This document shows, one piece after another, positions 5,533-61,092 of a stretch of DNA of 64,000 nt (position 1 is the stretch's first letter; each line of letters begins with the position of its first letter). Source of the DNA: Clostridia bacterium (GTDB lineage Bacteria > Bacillota > Clostridia > Oscillospirales > CAG-272). The position numbers were made by a program, and so were the translations under genes. The DNA lies in contig JAFTSU010000002.1 of NCBI GenBank assembly GCA_017467105.1, positions 40,588 to 104,587 of the forward strand, given 5' to 3'. A model generated the notes under the pieces. That model saw nothing but the letters and a program-made list of their open reading frames with translations. It had not been told where the DNA came from and ran no database searches.

Positions 5533-5538
5533 ACTCCC

Positions 5539-5792
5539 GTAAACCGATGATGGAGAGTAGTAATCGCAGCCGTCACTCATTACAGAGAGCCGCGGAGCTG
5601 GGATGCGGTATGAGAGGTGCGACGAATGGACTCCTGAGGGCGAACCGAAAGCTTGGCGAGTAGGCTTCGACGGAGAGCAGCCGTTATCTATGCAACGCAT
5701 TTCGTGCGTGAGGAGGCTTATGCCTCGAACTTGGGTGGCACCGCGATAATTTCGCCCCGAGCAGTTTTTACTGCTTCGGGCTTTTTGTTTTT
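5539..5792 (+). promoter_or_regulatory. T-box riboswitch leader, tryptophan specifier (UGG)
   Basis: Specifier-loop context GAA-UGG-A with UGG at 5627-5629. T-box motif TTGGGTGGCACCGCG at 5731-5745. Terminator hairpin at 5753-5781 followed by a U tract. It is a paralogue of the leader at 20210-20465. Confidence 0.85.
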
Positions 5793-20209: not shown

Positions 20210-20465
20210 TATTAAAACAAAAAAAGCCCCGAGCAAAAACAGCTCGGGGCGAAATTATCGCGGTGCCACCCAAGTTCAAGGCGTAAGCCTCCTCACGCAC
20301 GAAATGCGTTGTGCAGATAACGGTTGCCCTCCGTCGAAGCCTACTTGCCAAGCTTTCGGTTCGCCCTCAAAAGTCCATTCACCAATGCTCCCGTACCGCA
20401 ATCACACCGCCTGCGGCTCTCTGAAACGTTATACGTTGGCTACTTCTCTTTATCACAGGTTATGT
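20210..20465 (-). promoter_or_regulatory. T-box riboswitch leader, tryptophan specifier (UGG)
   Basis: On the minus strand: GAA-UGG-A specifier (UGG is the complement of 20375-20377). T-box motif GGGTGGCACCGCG (20259-20273). Terminator at 20226-20250 plus a U tract. Confidence 0.85.
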
Positions 20466-53232: not shown

Positions 53233-53441
53233 TTTTATTACCCAACCGTTAAATAAATTATACTTTACAGATCAATTATATCATATATCTGTCAATATTT
53301 CCAGCATTATATAAACTTTGTCACATTGTTTAATTGCATTAACGCCGATCGGATCGTCGCGCAAACAAAAAAGCAAGGCAGTTAGCCTTGCCGAAGCTTA
53401 TTTTCTGATCCTCTCGCGCCACAGATCGCAGAGAAGCGGTT

Positions 53442-53640
53442 GAAATACGAACCCATTTTCTCGGCTTCGCCTGCGAAAACTAGGTCGAGTCAATCGAGAC
53501 GGTTCGCCAAAGCAAAAGAGAGATAGCCGCGAGGGGTCATCTCTCTTTTGTTAGTGGGTCATGCTTAATCAAAATCGAACCGTTATAACTAATCACGCCC
53601 GTGGCGTGTATATAATCAAAACATAAGTTTCACAAAAAAA
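53442..53640. repeat. Left island-border module: copy of the tRNA-Met downstream flank, a hairpin, a tRNA-3'-like remnant and a truncated iteron element
   Basis: 53442-53485 matches 60329-60372 (44 nt, 3 mismatches). A hairpin lies at 53514-53549. TAGTGGGTCATGCTTAATCAAAATCGAACC at 53552-53581 belongs to the CCACCA...TCGAACC remnant family. 53582-53632 matches the first 50 nt or so of the element at 56081. Confidence 0.75.
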
Positions 53641-53714
53641 CTCCGGGACAGATAAACTGTTGAGTCCGCCGCAAAAAGCCATACAACCAAGTCTCTCAAA
53701 AAATCATTCAATCC

Positions 53715-55592
53715 TTAGCTTTTATTGTTTTTTAAAAGCAAATAACAATATTTTTCTTTCATGATTAACTTATTGGATACAGCTTCACCATATAAAACCT
53801 TTTCAATCGTATACTGATTATCGATAGAGAATTCCAACTCTGTATTATCCTCATTAAAATTATAAAGCATTACCCCTATCTTTTCATTATTCAATTTATG
53901 TGCCGTTTTAAAAACAAATTGATTCCGAATTGCAAAAATTTCCTTTTTCCCTTCAAAGAAACTTCCGTAAATTTTATATAAATTCGTCTTTTCGGGGTAA
54001 TACGATTGGGTATAAAACGTTTCCAACGGTGCATTGACAAACAAAACGAGCCCTTTCCCATATTGCTTTTTGGCAATCACAACGTTGCCTTCTTGATCTT
54101 TGGCAACTATTTGCGCCGCGATGTTTTCAACGAGCAATTTTTGCGATCTTTCAATTTTCAAAACGCTCTCTTGCAAATCAAACTCAATCGCATTTTCTAC
54201 TTTCTCATGCCCTAAAATGCGCAATCCCGTCCATTTTTCAAAATCTCTGATTGTTCCACCATTATAAGTAATCAAAAGATTCGCTCCGTCTTGAATCCTC
54301 TTTTCCAAGACTTCCCACTGACATTTAGGCAGCCCGTTCGCTCCCGAAACACACGGAAGTATATAATAATTGGCATTTTTTAACGGTTGTTCTTCATGGC
54401 AAAAATCAATATATTTTCCAGACTGTACGCCTAACATAAAAGCACCATACGCAATTTTCCAATGGTCATTTATTCCACTTAAAATACAAACTGCATCAGT
54501 TTCAGGTGCTGTTAATGAGCCTATTTCTTGAATCACTTTTTGTAATACACGCATTTTTAACAAGGCCGGTTTTGGTTCACAATCCGCATAACATAAGCCT
54601 AAGTGGGTTTCCATCCCCACCACATCATAAGGTGCAAAATTTAATGACTCTTGATCAAATGCACACCACCATAGAAAACCTTTTGTTCCTGTCATATACG
54701 ACGTAATTAATGCCGTTTCTAAATATTCGGGAACTTTTTCATCACATAAAGCATCTAAAACCCCTATCTCTTGTACCATAGACGGTTTCTGCGCAATAGA
54801 AGAATAATAGGAATTTTCTACCGCAGCGTGCATAGACGCTCGCATAGCCGTCAACCGTTCTCGATTACAATAGGGAGTAAAATTGGGATAAGGGTGTGGC
54901 GTAACCATATCGAAAATCTTACCTTGCGAAGACAAACTCCAAAGCCCCTTACATCGCGTTCCGTGCATTCCCGCATAAATGGGACGAGTCGGATCTGCCA
55001 ATCGAATTATTGACGTTATTGTTCTAAGCCATAATTCCGCTTGATATTGATCCACTTCACAGCTTAAGCAATTCGTTTCATTTCCGGGCTCGTAAGCAAT
55101 TATATTTTCAAACTCTTTAATTTCGGAAATTAAATCCGTAATAAACGCACATTCATACAAAACAACTTCAGCATCTTTTATTAAATCTCTATTGATAAAA
55201 GGATCCGGAACCAGCTTACGCCCACTCATCCAACCTGTAATGAAAGAAACAATAACCTGCAATCCGTTATTTTTCGCCACAGTGAGCAAATGCTTCATAT
55301 TTTTTACTTGTTTCTCGTCTAATCCACTATCGGGAAATTTTTGATAAACAAGCGGTTGATCGCCCGTTCTCATTCTAAAAGAACCGCTCTCTGCAGCTTG
55401 GGTATTAAAAAAGCGCATTTCCGTCAACGGTTGAAAATCTGGCCAAAGCGGAAAAATACGAATTGTATTGACACCATAAGACCGCAACATTTGTAAGTCC
55501 TTTTCTACGGTGCCTTCATCGTATCTTCTCCACATATATAACCCTGCATGCGAGGCCCAATAATTAGCCCCAAAGAAAAATTCTTCTTTCAT
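53715..55592 (-). CDS. TIM-barrel glycoside hydrolase (clan GH-A, GH5/GH42-like) with a C-terminal domain
   Basis: 625 aa with GVNTIRIFPLW and an NET catalytic-acid context. Composition is visibly AT-richer. The start is at MKEEFFF (RBS AGAGGAAGG). Confidence 0.6.
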   Translation of the reverse strand: MKEEFFFGANYWASHAGLYMWRRYDEGTVEKDLQMLRSYGVNTIRIFPLWPDFQPLTEMRFFNTQAAESGSFRMRTGDQPLVYQKFPDSGLDEKQVKNMKHLLTVAKNNGLQVIVSFITGWMSGRKLVPDPFINRDLIKDAEVVLYECAFITDLISEIKEFENIIAYEPGNETNCLSCEVDQYQAELWLRTITSIIRLADPTRPIYAGMHGTRCKGLWSLSSQGKIFDMVTPHPYPNFTPYCNRERLTAMRASMHAAVENSYYSSIAQKPSMVQEIGVLDALCDEKVPEYLETALITSYMTGTKGFLWWCAFDQESLNFAPYDVVGMETHLGLCYADCEPKPALLKMRVLQKVIQEIGSLTAPETDAVCILSGINDHWKIAYGAFMLGVQSGKYIDFCHEEQPLKNANYYILPCVSGANGLPKCQWEVLEKRIQDGANLLITYNGGTIRDFEKWTGLRILGHEKVENAIEFDLQESVLKIERSQKLLVENIAAQIVAKDQEGNVVIAKKQYGKGLVLFVNAPLETFYTQSYYPEKTNLYKIYGSFFEGKKEIFAIRNQFVFKTAHKLNNEKIGVMLYNFNEDNTELEFSIDNQYTIEKVLYGEAVSNKLIMKEKYCYLLLKNNKS

Positions 55593-55615
55593 GTACACCT
55601 TCCTCTTTTCAATTT

Positions 55616-55846
55616 CAATCTAAAAATTTACTTAACAATTTTTTTGAAATCTGCATGTATGCACAGAATTTATCACTTTCTGGCCCGATTAATCTATATA
55701 AATCGCCTTCAAGAACAAATTGTTCATTTTCACGGTATAAACACGAAAATTTATGTATTTCCACTTTTTCCGTCTCGGAATTTTGAGATACGTCTAGTTC
55801 GTATCCGTAAGTATCAAAGGACGCAACTAAATAACGGAATTATAAA
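55616..55846 (-). pseudogene. Start-less relic of a glycosidase C-terminus (GDLYRL motif, GH36 alpha-galactosidase-like)
   Basis: A 76-codon open frame without a start reads ...FDTYGYELDVSQNSETEKVEIHKFSCLYRENEQFVLEGDLYRLIGPESDKFCAYMQISKK. It ends 21 nt before the GH gene start. Confidence 0.3.
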
Positions 55847-56027
55847 GTAGATTCTCTTCCGCTTGTACACACTAGGTGATATACCATTGTATGTGATTTT
55901 GGCAAAAAAGTCAATAGCTAAATAAAATTATTAAAAAAATTAAAACACTCTTTAATTTAGTCTTCCTCATTCGATATTTCTTCTGACGCTGTTAGCAAAT
56001 TTACAATATTTTTTAGCACTTAACCCA

Positions 56028-56370
56028 GAAAGGGCTGACCTCTTTTTGTTGGTGGAGAATCTTCAACGAAAGTCGAACCGCTATAACTAATCACGCCCGT
56101 GGCGTGTATATCATCAAAACATAGTTTTGTATATCATCAACACAACGTGTTGTATAGACGCTCGCAAACTCGTTATACCGTCGCTACGCTCCTTACATCA
56201 AGTCGCAGATGAATGCACGCTAAAGCGTGATGATATACACCTTTGGTGATGAGATACAGACCAAAGTCTGATGATATACCAAGTCTGCGACTTGGATAAG
56301 AAAAAACCTCACCCTGTTAGGATGAGGTTTTTTCTGGTGGAGCATCTTCAACGAAAATCGAACCATATTG
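56028..56370. repeat. Iteron/mini-hairpin element, copy B, with flanking tRNA-3'-like direct repeats
   Basis: 56028-56056 is identical to 60416-60444 (29 nt). The flanks TGGTGGAGAATCTTCAACGAAAGTCGAACC (56050-56079) and TGGTGGAGCATCTTCAACGAAAATCGAACC (56336-56365) are direct repeats. The core has GTATATCATCA at 56106 and 56129, and its complement TGATGATATAC at 56228 and 56269. A bidirectional terminator hairpin lies at 56300-56334. Confidence 0.85.
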
Positions 56371-56385
56371 TTCAAAAGGGGTTGA

Positions 56386-56802
56386 TTACAATTTTTCTCC
56401 GCACCGGGAGCAAAACGTAGAATCAGCATCTATTCTCGCGCCGCAATGCTTACAAAACATCGTTTTCTGTACACCGTTTGCAATCGCATTTGCTGTTTTT
56501 GAGACAGCGTCACTCATAATTTCCGCGCTGTTGTTCGCGATAGCCGTCAGATCATCTTTGTTTTCTTCCTGAATATACCTTAAGGTTTTGGCTCTTGCTT
56601 TTGCGATTTCAGGACCAAAGCCGATCGCTATTCCCAATGCGGTCATCATCACTCCTATAACCGCCACAAAGCTTCCGATCATAAAATTGTTGCTTTCAAA
56701 ATCTCCAAGTCCCGCAACGGTTAATACTATTCCCGTGACCGTCGAGGCGGCGCCAATAACCCCGATGATCTTAAATATCCAAAAATGTCTCGGACGATTC
56801 AT
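56386..56802 (-). CDS. Membrane protein with C-terminal zinc ribbon
   Basis: 138 aa with two TM helices, then CKHCG...CSRCG. Confidence 0.6.
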   Translation of the reverse strand: MNRPRHFWIFKIIGVIGAASTVTGIVLTVAGLGDFESNNFMIGSFVAVIGVMMTALGIAIGFGPEIAKARAKTLRYIQEENKDDLTAIANNSAEIMSDAVSKTANAIANGVQKTMFCKHCGARIDADSTFCSRCGEKL

Positions 56803-56943
56803 TCAAATTCCTCCCAATTTTTATAGCAGCAGTTTGTATTGCTTTCCTTGATTTTATTTTACACTGTTTTATATATTTTGTCAATATGGAGTTAGAAGAT
56901 AAAAAATAAGGCACAGTGGCGGGCTCTTGGTGTTACGCACGGC

Positions 56944-57217
56944 ATCACGCCCGGGGCGTGTATATCATCAAAACATAGTTTTGTATATCACCAACACAAC
57001 GTGTTGTATAGACGCTCGCGAGCTCGCTATACCGTCGCTACGCTCCTTACATCAAGTCGCAGATGAATGCATGCTAAAGCGTGATGATATACACCTTCGG
57101 TGATGAGATACAGACCAAAGTCTGATGATATACCAAGTCTGCGACTTGGATAAACAAAAACCTCACCCTATTCGGATGAGGTTTTTGTTGGTGGAGCAAG
57201 CTTCAGGAAAGTCGAAC
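56944..57217. repeat. Iteron/mini-hairpin element, copy C
   Basis: It is colinear with 56090-56365, with about 8 substitutions in the first 205 nt. A terminator hairpin lies at 57156-57186. The remnant TGGTGGAGCAAGCTTCAGGAAAGTCGAAC lies at 57189-57217. It has no left-hand remnant. Confidence 0.85.
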
Positions 57218-57238
57218 TTAGTGCTTAGTTGGAAATCT

Positions 57239-57832
57239 TTATTTTTTTAACAATTTAAAAGTGTTTTCTTCCACATCCCATTCGTAAGGAGTATAATTGC
57301 ACTTTTTCCCATTCTTACCAACTTTGCTATCACCGAGCAACACCAAAAAACAACCATCACTGATATTTGCGACCTTATTACTTTCGACTATTGCTTTGCT
57401 GACATATTCCAAATACGGTTCTTTTGGTAGTGCTTTGGGAACATATCCTACAACAACTCGTAATGGACAACGAATGTGTAAAAGTTTTATGATCTCATCC
57501 ATCCAAAGTTTATCGTTGTTTTCGTGTTCAATTGCGATCTCGAGATCCCAACAATATGTTTGAAAACTGTAGCTTTTGTTTTCCGGCACCAGCAGCTTAT
57601 CTTTGATTTCTTTTCTTCTTTGTGTCCAACCCGTTAAGTCAATACGATAATACTCTTTAGAGGTTTCAAGCCCAATACCACCTTTATCTTTTGATCCAAT
57701 GATACCCTCCATCATTCCAATAATAAATTCGGTATAATCTTTGCTATAATTCCACTTCTCCTGTGCTTCGGCGTAAATATCTTTTTTATTCAACTTATCA
57801 CTGAAAGCTTTCCAAAACTCTTTTGCTGTCAT
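57239..57832 (-). CDS. Hypothetical protein (197 aa), family not recognised
   Basis: Its ATG overlaps the upstream stop by 4 nt (ATGA). It contains an acidic YYRIDL...WDLEIAIEHEN pattern. Confidence 0.55.
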   Translation of the reverse strand: MTAKEFWKAFSDKLNKKDIYAEAQEKWNYSKDYTEFIIGMMEGIIGSKDKGGIGLETSKEYYRIDLTGWTQRRKEIKDKLLVPENKSYSFQTYCWDLEIAIEHENNDKLWMDEIIKLLHIRCPLRVVVGYVPKALPKEPYLEYVSKAIVESNKVANISDGCFLVLLGDSKVGKNGKKCNYTPYEWDVEENTFKLLKK

Positions 57833-58194
57833 ATTTTGTTCTCCTTGTTTTTCGTATGATGAAACGCTAATTTACCGATTTTGATATCTTTTGGAAGATT
57901 TTTTATTTCTAACAAAAGACAATTACAGAAGGCAGCATCACCGATCTCTTCAAGCCCTTTGGGAAGTGTGATTCCCTCAAGATTTACACACTCCTGAAAA
58001 GCGCTCTTGCCAATTCTCTTGAGAGTTGACGGAAGCGTAATGCTTACAAGTCCGTCGCAAAAAACAAAAGCTTCGTCACCGATTTCTGTTACGCCCTCGG
58101 GGATAACAACCTTCTCTATATCGTCACGCCCTGCATACGCACCATTTTCTATATTTTTCGTTCCTTGGGGAAGGGTTAATACTTTTTCGCTCAT
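57829..58194 (-). CDS. BspA-type leucine-rich-repeat protein (short)
   Basis: Repeated IPEGVTEIGDEAF / LPSTLKRIGKSAF / LPKGLEEIGDAAF units. The start is moved to MSEKVL (RBS AAAGGAG 6 nt upstream). Confidence 0.6.
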   Translation of the reverse strand: MSEKVLTLPQGTKNIENGAYAGRDDIEKVVIPEGVTEIGDEAFVFCDGLVSITLPSTLKRIGKSAFQECVNLEGITLPKGLEEIGDAAFCNCLLLEIKNLPKDIKIGKLAFHHTKNKENKI

Positions 58195-58470
58195 ATAAGG
58201 CTCCTTTACGATGTTTTTTATAAGTATATCGTGTGTATTTGAACGAGAAGTAAACAAATTACGACCCTGCCATTTCCGAGCTCCTTAAAAACATCTTTTA
58301 CTCAATTATAACACAGTTTAGGTAATTATACAATATCTGATGCACCTTTTGCGGCTGTATTGCAATAAAAAACATAGTTCGGTGTGTCACAGAATAGACG
58401 TCGAAAAACCACAATTTGTTCATATTTGGTATGTAAAATATAAATCCAAATTTATAAAAGGAGAGCAGAA

Positions 58471-59241
58471 ATGGGTGGAATTTATAAGAAAATCGGAAAC
58501 TACAATTTAGTTAGAAATTGCGAATTTTTTGGGTTGACAGACAACGAAGGACAAATGCTTTTGCCATGCGAATATGACAGCATATTTTACGAAGGCGGAG
58601 GATTTATTATCACAAAAAAATCGAAGTCGGGATATATCAGATTCCACGAGAAAGTCCCGTCTCACGATGAATACGAAACGGTGTTCGGGTATCCTGAGAA
58701 ATGCGCAGAACAGTTTTTACCCTGCATTTATGATCGAATTGAGCCAACCAGAAACGGCTTGGTTCTCTATTCCATGACAAAGAATAAATATTACGGTGCA
58801 AAGCGCGAATGGTATGATTGCAAGTCAGGTAAAATTTACAAAAACCTGCATTTTTTGCGCAATTATGGTGAATTCGATAAATTTCTCGATACTGATAATC
58901 CTGAGGAAAATTCAAAGCTTAAAAAATCCGGGGAGGATAAATATATCGGTTTTCCGTTCAATATATCAGGAGAAATTTTATACGAAGTTTCACTTTACAA
59001 CGGAGGTGCGCGCTATTTCGTGTGTTCCGAGGATCTTTCTGACGAGGAAATCGAGTTAAAGGGGCATATATGCGAATACTTCTTTTTGATAATACTGCCG
59101 AACACTTATACGTTTACAGAACCAAAATCCGAAATAGCTTTAATCTTTGAGGATTTTCCGAGGCTTGCGAGCATTTGGGACAATGAAGCTAAAAAAGAAA
59201 AAGAACAAAATGAATACAAAAAAAGAAAGGAAAACGGATAA
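58471..59241 (+). CDS. Hypothetical protein, possibly WG-repeat-like
   Basis: 256 aa with RBS AAAGGAG. LPCEYDSI and LPCIYDRI repeats are present. The family call is weak. Confidence 0.5.
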   Translation: MGGIYKKIGNYNLVRNCEFFGLTDNEGQMLLPCEYDSIFYEGGGFIITKKSKSGYIRFHEKVPSHDEYETVFGYPEKCAEQFLPCIYDRIEPTRNGLVLYSMTKNKYYGAKREWYDCKSGKIYKNLHFLRNYGEFDKFLDTDNPEENSKLKKSGEDKYIGFPFNISGEILYEVSLYNGGARYFVCSEDLSDEEIELKGHICEYFFLIILPNTYTFTEPKSEIALIFEDFPRLASIWDNEAKKEKEQNEYKKRKENG

Positions 59242-59444
59242 TGACAAGCACAAGGCAGGAAATTTATGACGGCAAAGGAGCGCGCATCGGCTGGATAGAA
59301 ACCGACGAGCGCGGTAATAAAAGAGTTTACAGCTTTTCAAAAGGTTTAGTCGGATTTTATTACAAGGATGCCAACCGCACGGTAACAGTGAGTGGAAAAA
59401 TTGTAGCCTACTCAGATTGTATGACAGCATTATTATTTTCGTGA
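59241..59444 (+). CDS. Small hypothetical protein (67 aa)
   Basis: TAATG overlap with the upstream gene. The sequence is beta-rich. Confidence 0.4.
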   Translation: MTSTRQEIYDGKGARIGWIETDERGNKRVYSFSKGLVGFYYKDANRTVTVSGKIVAYSDCMTALLFS

Positions 59445-59454
59445 GGTGAAAGAA

Positions 59455-59952
59455 ATGAAAGTGAGTATATATTCAAGAAAAGAGATGGAAACGCTTATTT
59501 CAAGAGATGAAATTGAAAACACTGCTATTATCAGCTTTTACGATCCCATCGGATGCCGACGTAGATATCTTGAAGATTACGCGCCTATTGATTTTTCGGA
59601 CAAATCCGACCGAGTTATGCAGATTGCCATTCACGACCTTGATCTCGAGGCACTCTCGGATTTCGGCTTGTCGGTGGAAGCCTATTTTCCCGAAGCTGAC
59701 ACTCTTGCTGAGTTTATCTATAAGGCAAAAGAGGACGGACTTGACATCATCTGTCAATGTGAATACGGTCAATCCCGCTCCGCAGGCTGCGCCGCCGCGA
59801 TTTTGCAACATTTTTTTAAGAACGGAATCGACGTGTTCGCCGATTACCGATATTACCCAAATCAGCTAGTGTACCATAAGGTGTTTGATGCCCTTGAGAA
59901 ATTTAAAGGAATACTAAAAACAAATGGCAATCCCCCCCAAAAAAATATGTAG
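59455..59952 (+). CDS. Cys-X5-Arg phosphatase-like protein (PTP/DSP fold candidate)
   Basis: CEYGQSRS fits the C-X5-R-S/T P-loop. The start is at MKVSIY, 5 nt after GAGGTGA. Confidence 0.5.
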   Translation: MKVSIYSRKEMETLISRDEIENTAIISFYDPIGCRRRYLEDYAPIDFSDKSDRVMQIAIHDLDLEALSDFGLSVEAYFPEADTLAEFIYKAKEDGLDIICQCEYGQSRSAGCAAAILQHFFKNGIDVFADYRYYPNQLVYHKVFDALEKFKGILKTNGNPPQKNM

Positions 59953-60247
59953 CAATCAAACTCGGAAAACAAATCACCCGACGCTTCTGTTTCAACGCGG
60001 AGATGTTATCAAGAACAAACGCACGGGTGATATTGCTTGTGTAGATAGTTTACCGATTCTCAATTCACATTTGGATTTTAGCGATGAGTGCTATTATTGT
60101 CATTCGTTGGATTGCCAAATTACAGAACAGATAATACGGAATGGAAGTGTTCATCTACACATTCACGTGTTTGATGCTGTTGCGTGTGATATAAAAACTC
60201 TTTCGACAAAACAAAACGAAAACCAATCCTCTTTCGAGGTTCGATAG
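59924..60247 (+). CDS. Hypothetical ORF (107 aa), doubtful
   Basis: It overlaps the previous gene by 29 nt and has no clear RBS. Its stop lies 1 nt before the 12-nt att-like repeat. Confidence 0.25.
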   Translation: MAIPPKKICSNQTRKTNHPTLLFQRGDVIKNKRTGDIACVDSLPILNSHLDFSDECYYCHSLDCQITEQIIRNGSVHLHIHVFDAVACDIKTLSTKQNENQSSFEVR

Positions 60248-60248
60248 T

Positions 60249-60437
60249 GACCATCTAGGATTTTGACGGAGAGCGTCAATATTTCCACACTCTGCGCCTG
60301 ACAAGCGAGCTTGTCGATCTTCGAGTGGGAAATGCGAACCTATTTTCTTGGCTTCGCCTGCGAAAACTAGGTTCTCGCGGACTAGGAAGTCCACCAAAAC
60401 AAAAAGAGGTCAACCGAAAGGGCTGACCTCTTTTTGT
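60249..60437. repeat. tRNA-proximal mini-module: 12-nt direct repeat of the tRNA 3' part, the 44-nt conserved segment, an inverted tRNA-end copy and a terminator
   Basis: GACCATCTAGGA at 60249-60260 is identical to 60443-60454, inside the tRNA. An inverted repeat GTCCACCAA(AA)CAAAAAGAGGTCA / TGACCTCTTTTTGTTGGTGGAC spans 60389-60445. Confidence 0.75.
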
Positions 60438-60514
60438 TGGTGGACCATCTAGGACTCGAACCTAGGACCGACCGGTTATGAGCCGGTAGCTCTAACCAAC
60501 TGAGCTAATGGTCC
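60438..60514 (-). tRNA. tRNA with CAT anticodon (elongator Met type, could be lysidine-modified tRNA-Ile2)
   Basis: Cloverleaf by hand: acceptor GGACCAT/ATGGTCC, D stem GCTC/GAGC, anticodon stem ACCGG/CCGGT with loop CTCATAA, T arm CTAGG-TTCGAGT-CCTAG, encoded CCA. Confidence 0.9.
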
Positions 60515-60727: not shown

Positions 60728-60803
60728 GCTGCTATGGCTCAGCTGGTAGAGCACATCCTTGGTAAGGATGAGGTCCCCGGTCCGAATCCGGGTAGCAGCT
60801 CCA
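60728..60803 (+). tRNA. tRNA-Thr (GGT) with an atypical T loop
   Basis: Acceptor GCTGCTA/TAGCAGC, D stem GCTC/GAGC, anticodon stem CATCC/GGATG with loop TTGGTAA, T arm CCCGG-TCCGAAT-CCGGG (C at position 55), encoded CCA. Confidence 0.8.
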
Positions 60804-60818
60804 GACAACCCCGAAGGT

Positions 60819-61092
60819 AACACTTCGGGGCTTTGGTTTTTTTATTGGAGCTTAAGCTTTTCACAAGGCTTTTTCGGGGTTGGCCGGAGATGCTACTCTC
60901 GCTTCGAGCCGCGCCGCGCCACCCGTGCGCGCGATCCGGTCCGCATACTCCGCTCGGAAATCTGCAAGCTCGCTTGCTAGGTGAAGAGCGTGAGTATCTT
61001 CGCATAGCGAATACCCGGGTGCAACACTTCGGGGCTTTGTTTTTTTGAAGCTTAAGCTTTTTACAGTGTATATTTCGCGCAGCGAATACCCA
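60819..61092 (+). repeat. Direct repeats downstream of tRNA-Thr bracketing a GC-rich segment of about 130 bp
   Basis: AACACTTCGGGGCTTTG(G)TTTTTT..GAAGCTTAAGCTTTT occurs at 60819-60865 and 61023-61065. TCGC(A/G)(T/C)AGCGAATACCC occurs at 61000-61016 and 61076-61092. Confidence 0.7.

Follow-up and report, generated by a model that had tools for sequence, protein, structure and literature searches.

A modular AT-rich island with tRNA-3′-like module ends and palindromic hairpin arrays behind a tRNA-Met gene of an uncultured gut Clostridia bacterium

The window analysed here is a stretch of 64,000 nucleotides from a Clostridia bacterium (contig JAFTSU010000002.1). Our subject is an island at 53.4-60.4 kb, which is stacked on the CCA end of a tRNA-Met gene and is built of modules with tRNA-3′-like ends, terminators, hairpin arrays and accessory genes. 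The window is 99.99% identical to a 275-kb metagenome scaffold (L001) of an uncultured gut bacterium. Its tryptophanyl-tRNA synthetase (TrpRS) shares 89-93% identity with proteins of metagenome-assembled genomes (MAGs) labelled Clostridia, Ruminococcaceae or Oscillospiraceae, and parts of the locus were found in sequencing runs from bovine, sheep, goat and other gut metagenomes. When species-representative genomes were searched with the flanking metallophosphoesterase, the sole match was a non-syntenic one, of 39% identity, in an Acutalibacteraceae MAG (L005).

Organization of the island

The island is described from the tRNA outward, along the minus strand of the window. The whole array of modules is anchored on the CCA end (60438-60440) of tRNA-Met(CAT), which occupies 60438-60514 on the minus strand (ARAGORN; Rfam tRNA model, 70.6 bits). 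The acceptor stem of this tRNA starts with GGACC and its anticodon loop reads CTCATAA; we take it to resemble the Firmicutes tRNA-Ile2 (lysidine), the anticodon alone being unable to separate Met from Ile2.

Terminator T1 (60398-60438) is a bidirectional hairpin (inverted repeat I8), whose palindrome reaches TCCACCA (60391-60397) on one side and TGGTGGA (60438-60444) on the other. Across 60373-60445 the T1 hairpin is lengthened by an inverted copy of the last 7-8 tRNA nucleotides (TCCACCA/TGGTGGA), and the plus strand of the same segment contains a small stem, GGACT/AGTCC, followed by ACCA, which resembles a minihelix with a CCA tail. Some contigs of two other metagenomes (X5 and X8) join 60372 directly to 60437; in these T1 is missing and a 64-nt piece is gone. 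The next feature is the 137-nt mini-element E2 (60261-60397, minus strand), a series of hairpins that includes a 44-mer (60329-60372) and the hairpin TTGACG-N5-CGTCAA (60263-60279); its RNA fold has a z score of -3.9. It is followed by a truncated duplicate of the tRNA-Met 3′ end (60249-60260, minus strand), which comprises 12 of the 17 nt seen in X8, where the loose end ATCTCTCTTTTGTTGGTG stands before 60249.

Module M2 (57218-60248) contains six genes. Four are on the plus strand and encode a 107-aa protein (59924-60247), a protein resembling dual-specificity phosphatases (DSP) with a CX5R motif (59446-59952), a 67-aa protein (59241-59444) and a WG-repeat protein (58471-59241); the two on the minus strand encode an LRR_5 protein (57829-58257) and a 197-aa protein (57239-57832). 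M2 ends distally in a pseudo-tRNA core, core C (TGGTGGAGCAAGCTTCAGGAAAGTCGAAC; 57189-57217, minus strand).

Beyond core C, all features lie on the minus strand. Terminator T2 (57153-57189) and hairpin array C (56944-57149), delimited by repeat D1, inverted repeat I13 and linker counts, are followed by an outward promoter (56884-56856), which agrees with the consensus at 11 of 12 positions and precedes the gene of a zinc-ribbon membrane protein (56386-56802; Pfam). Then come core B-right (56335-56364), terminator T2′ (56299-56335), array B (56090-56295; D1, inverted repeat I12) and core B-left (56050-56079). The latter is joined to part of a T1-type terminator, namely its loop and 3′ arm, and the fusion constitutes the direct repeat (b) discussed below (56028-56056). 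A second promoter (55914-55886) stands ahead of a 627-aa glycoside hydrolase (GH)-like gene (53715-55598), the leader of which (~55640-55860) holds a relic of an alpha-galactosidase (Melibiase). The series continues with a remnant of array A (53592-53630), core A (53552-53581) and terminator T3 (53517-53552), where repeat D2 lies, and with E2′ (repeat D4), a remnant containing the second copy of the 44-mer (53442-53485). Terminator T4 (53372-53392; terminator scan), located before the metallophosphoesterase gene, is the native end of the region. At least five tandem modules ending in ...TCCACCA are thus present at one site, with no recombinase. ARAGORN and Rfam found no cloverleaf in the 30-nt cores, and recognized two true tRNAs in the window.

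Repeats, composition and gene content

A sequence-only reading of the window had tied the island to the tRNA by three direct repeats, all of which we recovered. The 12-mer GACCATCTAGGA, repeat (a), occurs only at 60249 and 60443. When up to one mismatch is allowed, shuffled sequences give 0.2 matches on average, and none of 100 of them reached two; taken alone this repeat is weak. We take it as real because in a contig of X8 the fragment is lengthened to TGGTGGACCATCTAGGA and has a terminator in front of it. Repeat (b) extends over 35 nt (56028-56062 and 60416-60450) at 94% identity, the first 29 nt being identical. Repeat (c), the 44-mer, matches at 93% over 44 nt (53442 and 60329), and at both sites it is followed by a hairpin and then by a (pseudo-)tRNA 3′ end, as had been noted.

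The same reading had listed four further remnants, which it regarded as decayed tRNA-Met 3′ ends. The remnants exist; their derivation did not hold, since they represent a conserved pseudo-tRNA module. They are 30 nt long, 5 nt longer than the tRNA tail between TGGTGGA and TCGAACC, and near-identical versions occur in two unrelated metagenome loci (L135 and L140). A longer repeat had been missed: 56090-56363 matches 56944-57217 over 274 nt at 93% identity, with a partial copy at 53546-53630, and three of the remnants are the ends of this repeat.

The island had been judged AT-richer than its flanks by eye. Computation bore this out: the G+C content is 38.9% for 53442-60437 and 47.6% for 1-53441. 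The lowest value of any other 7-kb segment is 45.3%, which places the island outside the range of all.

The proposed cargo was largely recognizable by Pfam. Clear matches were obtained for LRR_5 (E = 1.6e-25), the zinc ribbon (7e-8) and the WG repeat, weak ones for DSPc (3e-4, with the CX5R motif), GH5 (6e-3) and, in the glycosidase relic, the C-terminal Melibiase domain (6e-3). PADLOC gave no match with the island proteins. As the sequence-only reading had stated, the window encodes no recombinase: Pfam integrase, resolvase and transposase families were absent from every open reading frame (ORF) of at least 140 aa, and phmmer searches of the window with one tyrosine and three serine recombinase seeds taken from related loci gave nothing at E≤10.

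The 197-aa protein belongs to a family of 35 members, which has no Pfam domain and always follows directly after an LRR_5 (BspA-type) gene. A WG-repeat gene is often divergent beside this pair (L171, L175, L176, and the window at 57239-58257). The LRR_5 gene and its 197-aa partner look like a conserved accessory gene pair. We considered the 197-aa protein as part of the machinery and rejected it; its homologues sit with LRR_5 in places that have neither tRNA nor arrays, which makes it cargo.

Design and folding of the hairpin arrays

In the array family, linkers of the type GTATATCATC/GATGATATAC set palindromes apart. About three units lie on either side of the centre AAGYCGCAG. The units of the first half consist of a palindrome (CA-stem-loop-stem-TG) and the linker (G)TATATCAT(C); the approximately three units of the second half carry the inverted linker GATGATATRC, and the array ends with the terminal hairpin CCAAGYCTGCGRCTTGG. 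The window contains 19 copies of the linker with up to one mismatch, where 4.2 are expected, and 11 of the 19 fall within 55875-57133. Arrays B and C have in common a ~41-nt insertion (GACGCTCGC...CCTTACA) within the third linker (56152-56195 and 57006-57049), which is absent from the array allele of a conspecific strain (L002) and from canonical family members.

The following counts are among the matches listed. The 3+3 design was found in 52 of 102 arrays. Perfect stems of at least 4 bp occur in 242 of the 322 inter-linker segments, compared with 16 of 322 after shuffling; the stems comprise more than 40 different sequences, and a given hairpin type can recur at different positions of the arrays. 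Triloops, many of them GAA or GCA, were counted in 200 of the 322 segments. GNA-type triloops are stable in DNA.

Array B folds as single-stranded DNA far better than its shuffled versions (z = -7.8). In a MAFFT alignment of 49 arrays, 97.9% of the cells were paired according to the RNAalifold structure, and compensatory double changes were detected in 19 of its 40 pairs, compared with 1-6 in shifted controls. In a comparison bearing on the strand of the hairpins, G-T and A-C mismatches numbered 23 and 39, respectively, counts in which one hairpin type dominates. Pairing between linkers, although predicted by folding, was rejected, as variant linkers (e.g. L146; third forward against first reverse) do not covary. 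In the array of L146 the linkers of the first half are GTATGGAATC or GGATGAAATC, and the second half retains GATGATATRC; this change, confined to one half, implies that the halves of an array can diverge independently.

No Rfam family matched the arrays at threshold. The only recurrent weak match was to the Gut-1 RNA motif (RF01706), with 24.1 and 21.6 bits in the window and 27.3 bits in L062, the threshold being 50. The Gut-1 consensus has three hairpins parted by a short repeated linker (PMC2864571). Contigs from bovine-gut metatranscriptomes cover 56343-56915, from the promoter region through the zinc-ribbon gene to the core, at ~96-97% identity, and we conclude that at least the zinc-ribbon cassette is expressed in relatives.

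These results bear on the possibility that the arrays are Gut-1-like small RNAs or tRNA read-through trailers, and that the cores are tRNA-mimicking 3′ UTR elements recruiting tRNA-processing or CCA-adding enzymes, their position at the boundaries being a by-product. The preservation of the hairpins by compensatory changes would be accounted for, as would the hairpin-linker design shared with Gut-1 and the occurrence of array contigs, and of zinc-ribbon mRNA with its core, in metatranscriptomes; the RNA runs are, however, unstranded contigs that possibly include DNA. We consider this explanation very unlikely: the Gut-1 scores stay at 24-27 bits, every array has its linker inverted in the second half, a two-fold symmetry that suits double-stranded DNA, the array is placed between a terminator and a promoter, and triloops dominate. 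Our best guess is that the array acts at the DNA level, as a palindromic module similar to repetitive extragenic palindromes (REP) and bacterial interspersed mosaic elements (BIME), which would serve as terminator, insulator or promoter and as a recombination substrate. We favour a role in DNA because of the two-fold symmetry of the linkers, the position between terminator and promoter and the prevalence of GNA-type triloops.

Arrays behind other tRNA genes

A 25-nt pattern describing the array end was matched 3 times in viral contigs and at least 120 times among metagenome contigs. Among the matches listed, a complete tRNA precedes the array in 49 of ~100 informative loci, across a gap of 34-48 nt that holds only a terminator beginning directly after the CCA; 24 anticodon types are represented among these tRNAs. 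The order in the family is tRNA-CCA, terminator, palindrome array, outward promoter and accessory gene. The promoter has a -35 box, TTGATT, that overlaps the first hairpin, a 17-nt spacer and TGnTATAAT, and is followed by a ribosome-binding site and an ORF.

In 22 of 75 listed loci the first ORF after the array is a 23S_rRNA_IVP gene (PF05635, E = 1.5e-18), coding for a four-helix bundle protein of 113-117 aa (e.g. L052, L067, L086 and L118). It usually opens a unit of two genes, the second of which varies, and its stop often overlaps the next start (ATGA). At the other loci the arrays precede diverse small proteins or ordinary genes. Fourteen pairs of elements among the listed matches are at least 90% identical over at least 200 nt and have unrelated flanks on both sides, from which we conclude that the array module spreads between tRNA loci; in L066 and L118, for example, the array and the downstream gene are 96-97% alike behind different tRNAs.

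The array had no blastn match in cultured phages and plasmids. A looser pattern, GTATATCATC-N-GTATATCAYC, gave mostly unrelated matches in viral contigs, of which L039 alone was real. No REP-associated tyrosine transposase (RAYT) was seen near the arrays at the loci inspected, where no search dedicated to it was made. The tRNA-trailing hairpin-array family is apparently undescribed: a limited literature search yielded the original Gut-1 listing and nothing on tRNA-trailing arrays, by which novelty is not proven.

Small inserts and tRNA-tail duplicates in related loci

Several related loci carry duplicates of the tail of the local tRNA. In L039, L065 and L105 such duplicates, 17-24 nt long, come after inserts of 110-250 nt. 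The order in L135 is tRNA-Val, terminator, array 1, an E2 homologue that includes the small hairpin, a 17-nt duplicate of tRNA-Val, a second copy of the terminator, array 2, and AATTCGAATTTCGTTGAAGAGGCTCCACCA with a terminator, AATTCGAATTTCGTTGAAGAGGCTCCACCA being close to the cores of the window. L140 has GGTTCGATTTTCGTTACACTCCCTCCACCA followed by terminator and array, and in L068 the exact T2′ and array of the window stand behind unrelated sequence ending in CTCCACCA. The 17-nt duplicates of tRNA-Val (L135) and tRNA-Met (X8) are in equal register. Because of the arrangements in L135, L140 and L068, we interpret E2, together with its 44-mer, as the distal portion of a small insert by which 17 nt of the local tRNA are duplicated, and the 30-nt cores as a conserved module rather than decayed tRNA-Met tails. 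A search for the E2 hairpin pattern in viral contigs gave 36 matches, which were all unrelated coding sequence and were discarded.

The other tRNA of the window, tRNA-Thr(GGT) (60728-60803, plus strand; ARAGORN), is also followed by an E2-type insert (60804-61062, plus strand), which is an inverted match to the E2 of tRNA-Met and has two terminator-like hairpins. The insert, ~165-200 nt, is flanked by ~40-nt direct repeats of the 3′ half of the tRNA-Thr terminator (60819-60860 and 61025-61062). Small inserts are therefore present at the 3′ end of either tRNA gene of the window.

Integrase-bearing elements were found at this position in other loci. L118 contains tRNA-Asn, a terminator, an array and an IVP gene. 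L086 and L128 have the terminator, array and genes of L118, with an element encoding a tyrosine integrase in front of them, and the last 46 nt of tRNA-Asn are left; the distal junction of the element is tRNA fragment, terminator and array. The comparison of L118 with L086 and L128 evidently reveals classical integration between a tRNA and its trailer. Two viral contigs (L044:9026-10702 and L045:9098-12029) have large serine recombinases on the tRNA side of array remnants; L045 also encodes a D5-type primase and a capsid protein. The serine-recombinase elements of these contigs appear to be inserted between tRNA and array.

Module junctions in other metagenomes and strains

The segment from 57183 to 60222 or 60298, that is module M2, is present at ~98-99% identity in three other metagenomes (X4, X5 and X8), in which the read depth over 51-56 kb and 61-63 kb is zero. 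Homology to M2 stops there at 57182-57188, at the start of core C. On this evidence M2 has clearly spread horizontally. In the same metagenomes and in an RNA run (X25) a T3-type terminator (...GGGCTATCTCTC TTTTGT) directly precedes core C. T3 abuts core C there, and a 3.6-kb block (53552-57188) is therefore missing between two cores; in the window, by comparison with these samples, T3 and core C are separated by the inserted 3.6-kb block, which has a core at either end.

Other combinations were found as well. In X8 a T2-type terminator stands directly before the true tRNA-Met tail, and a T3-type terminator before the 17-nt tRNA-Met fragment and the E2 hairpin. X5 has a T2-type terminator before a fragment of another tRNA and the E2 hairpin. 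A contig from a further RNA run (X22) contains a hybrid core, the left half of which is C-like and the right half B-right-like. Counting repeat (b), terminators of at least four types occur in combination with five or more right-hand partners, the junction always being at TGG(TGGA), the CCA end.

These findings can be set against the view that the region is the decayed wreck of integrase-bearing islands or prophages, once integrated in tRNA-Met and in another tRNA whose trailer was carried along, which later lost their integrase genes and most of their DNA, so that nothing is mobile now. Such elements exist between tRNA and array in L086 and L128, with a tyrosine integrase and a 46-nt tRNA-Asn duplicate, large serine recombinases lie beside array remnants in L044 and L045, and the region itself has a Melibiase gene relic and truncated repeats. 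M2 nevertheless keeps its left boundary and its high identity in several metagenomes without the flanks, and must therefore have moved recently as a unit, with no integrase inside. Whole-cassette differences between conspecific strains are likewise at odds with decay, and we regard this explanation as quite improbable.

Three conspecific strains differ from the window in this way. L002 has one array, of a different allele (~8%), and lacks the zinc-ribbon cassette; its flanks are 99.96% identical. To the left of ~56045-56050 (core B-left), L006 carries a different terminator and gene. In L214 a DUF4832 gene takes the place of the GH-like gene, and homology resumes at 53649. Apparent indel boundaries at the repeats were seen in relatives (X4, X5, X8, X25, L002, L006 and L214), in what are short contigs and loose ends. 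A contig end at 60430 (L007) had been a candidate for an empty site; it was rejected as an assembly break, since a scaffold of the same sample (L168) overlaps across the tRNA. Contig joints with only 18-41 nt on one side (e.g. 53614 to 56196 and 56362 to 60457) were read as other repeat copies and not as deletions.

Homologous recombination among dispersed repeats could yield much of the same pattern. The main rival explanation dispenses with a dedicated site-specific system: REP/BIME-like repeats, together with homologous or illegitimate recombination, gene conversion and tandem duplication, would generate the mosaic, and foreign DNA would enter by transformation or transduction and recombine at shared repeats. 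The 93% identity of arrays B and C over 274 nt is sufficient for RecA-dependent exchange. L002 resembles a deletion between these arrays, and its ~8% divergent array inside nearly identical flanks is as expected of gene conversion; the shuffling of hairpin units among positions across arrays and the failure to find a recombinase in the window agree with the same explanation. What speaks against it is that the joints between unrelated partners fall at a single point, the CCA end, with only 7 nt in common, and that the 17-nt duplicates of the Val and Met tails, being in the same register, are a signature of site-specific integration. As a complete account we judge it unlikely.

Origin of the island

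The reading we favour, to which we give an even chance, is that non-autonomous cassettes have accreted over 53.4-60.4 kb, with the CCA end of tRNA-Met as their anchor. The head of a cassette would be its own intrinsic terminator, followed in two and a half cases by a palindrome array and an outward promoter. The body would hold zero to six accessory genes, and the tail would be a tRNA-3′-like end, ...TCCACCA, provided either by the tRNA-Met fragment (60249-60260) or by a 30-nt core (57189, 56335, 56050 and 53552). Since a new ...CCA end would come with each cassette, the next one could join behind it, and cassettes would stack. Joining would be catalysed by a recombinase encoded elsewhere, most likely one of the tyrosine type acting at the tRNA 3′ end. 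Such a trans-acting enzyme is suggested by the shuffling at a single point and by the 17-nt same-register tRNA duplicates, which reportedly fit the T-loop class of tRNA integration sites. Deletions and duplications would very probably be added by homologous recombination among the arrays that are 93% identical.

Of the serial accretion at a tRNA 3′ end proposed by the sequence-only reading, the foreign composition, the modularity and the tRNA-3′-like module ends stand, and the decayed tRNA-Met copies do not. Integrase-driven, site-specific integration we can only infer.

Several observations weigh against cassette accretion. There is no recombinase in the window, and a repaired, full-length empty site was not found in the same species; the evidence for empty sites comes from short Logan contigs and 30-nt loose-end consensus sequences of other organisms, without a full alignment. 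Among the loose contig joints examined none was usable as evidence for an excised circle, and no dedicated search for circles was made. Cores A, B and C are only ~70-90% alike, and TGGTGGA and TCGAAC(C) are all that they have in common with tRNA-Met; with so little shared, the identity segment of a tyrosine recombinase could be at most 7 nt. Distant homologues of the LRR and 197-aa pair occur in contexts with neither tRNA nor arrays. Finally, most arrays of the family precede ordinary genes and have no core at the far end, so that the cassette-with-core design is documented only in the window, L006, L135 and L140.

A wider proposal, possible if rather doubtful, is that gut Oscillospirales possess a cassette system that is integron-like and yet unrelated to integrons. 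Small recombinase-less cassettes would reside at the CCA ends of many tRNAs, a recombinase from elsewhere would insert, stack and exchange them, and the arrays of the GTATATCATC, CAGTGAAGTT and Gut-1 types would be an accessory recombination or structural module.

Relation to known systems

Genomic islands targeted to tRNA genes by tyrosine integrases are reportedly divided into classes by the sublocation of the integration site. The island has in common with them direct repeats of the 3′ part of the tRNA (the 17-nt duplicate begins where the T-loop ends), an AT-rich accessory cargo and differences in presence and absence between strains, L086 and L128 being the classical case. It differs in that neither the island nor the window encodes an integrase, the cassettes can be as small as 180-370 nt, most of the repeats are the conserved pseudo-tRNA core, and many junctions are at the very CCA end.

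Cis-mobilizable elements (CIMEs) are said to undergo accretion-mobilisation at the ICESt1 and ICESt3 sites of Streptococcus thermophilus. Like these, the modules have att-type boundaries and no recombination genes, and they follow one another at a single site; in both cases a related autonomous element is presumed to move them. Here, unlike in CIMEs, the site is a tRNA CCA end or a pseudo-tRNA core, and the cassettes have terminator-array-promoter modules.

Integron (attC) cassettes and Xer-dependent pdif modules are small cassettes without a recombinase that carry their own site at one end. Head-to-tail cassettes shuffled between contexts are common to them and to the island. In contrast to them, the window has no intI/attI platform, attC-type R″-L″/L′-R′ structure or dif-like sequence, the arrays having been judged in this respect by reading the sequence. 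We know of no report of classical integrons in Firmicutes, the phylum of the host.

The 178-bp repeats distal to Escherichia coli tyrT (rtT RNA) are a local tandem duplication, in which each repeat ends with a tRNA 3′ segment. The position behind a tRNA gene and the terminal copy of the tRNA 3′ end are similar; there is no sequence relation, and here the family is dispersed and accompanied by cargo genes.

The REP/BIME elements of Proteobacteria, including the REP doublets forming hairpins (REPIN), are clusters of extragenic palindromes with conserved linkers. The arrays share with them the multiple copies, the intergenic location at operon ends, the mosaic order of units and the role as targets for insertions. 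The arrays differ in that the linker is conserved while the stems vary (more than 40 types), in the strict two-fold arrangement of approximately three forward and three inverted linkers, in the coupling to tRNA CCA ends, and in the built-in terminator and outward promoter.

The Gut-1 motif, with the linker GUGAAAU, is known only from gut metagenomes and has no known function (Weinberg et al. 2010, PMC2864571). Hairpins parted by a repeated short linker are common to both; the present arrays have another linker and twice the length, and their second half is inverted.

Precedents exist for islands behind tRNA genes and for att-bounded elements that lack a recombinase (CIMEs). The points that would be new, not having been found in the limited literature search, are the pseudo-tRNA tail as the putative end of a cassette, the joints at the CCA end, and the tRNA-trailing array family with terminator and promoter.

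If the cassette reading is true, it shows how a dominant, little-studied group of gut bacteria captures accessory genes and expresses them behind its tRNA genes, and it describes mobile DNA without a recombinase gene, the attachment site of which is renewed by every cassette. Whatever the mechanism, the array family is a concrete and easily searchable object (at least 120 copies, and 24 anticodon types among the matches listed). It may give the orphan Gut-1 motif a genomic context, and it explains assembly breaks behind tRNA genes in these genomes.

Additional observations

In the conspecific strain L214 a 355-nt insert resembling a miniature inverted-repeat transposable element (L214:733-1091) is located in the loop of T4, at approximately position 53380 of the window. 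Its terminal inverted repeats are imperfect and 28 nt long, TAA stands at both junctions, and the insert holds a terminator and an array of a second family, consisting of four forward copies of CAGTGAAGTT and three inverted copies of AAACTTCACT with palindromic spacers. The CAGTGAAGTT linker is absent from the window.

Elsewhere in the window, two T-box leaders scored above the Rfam threshold, with 104 and 114 bits, respectively. The first (5538-5762, plus strand) lies upstream of a PHP-domain gene and the TrpRS gene, and the second (20242-20465, minus strand) upstream of a gene for a pyridoxal phosphate (PLP)-dependent enzyme.

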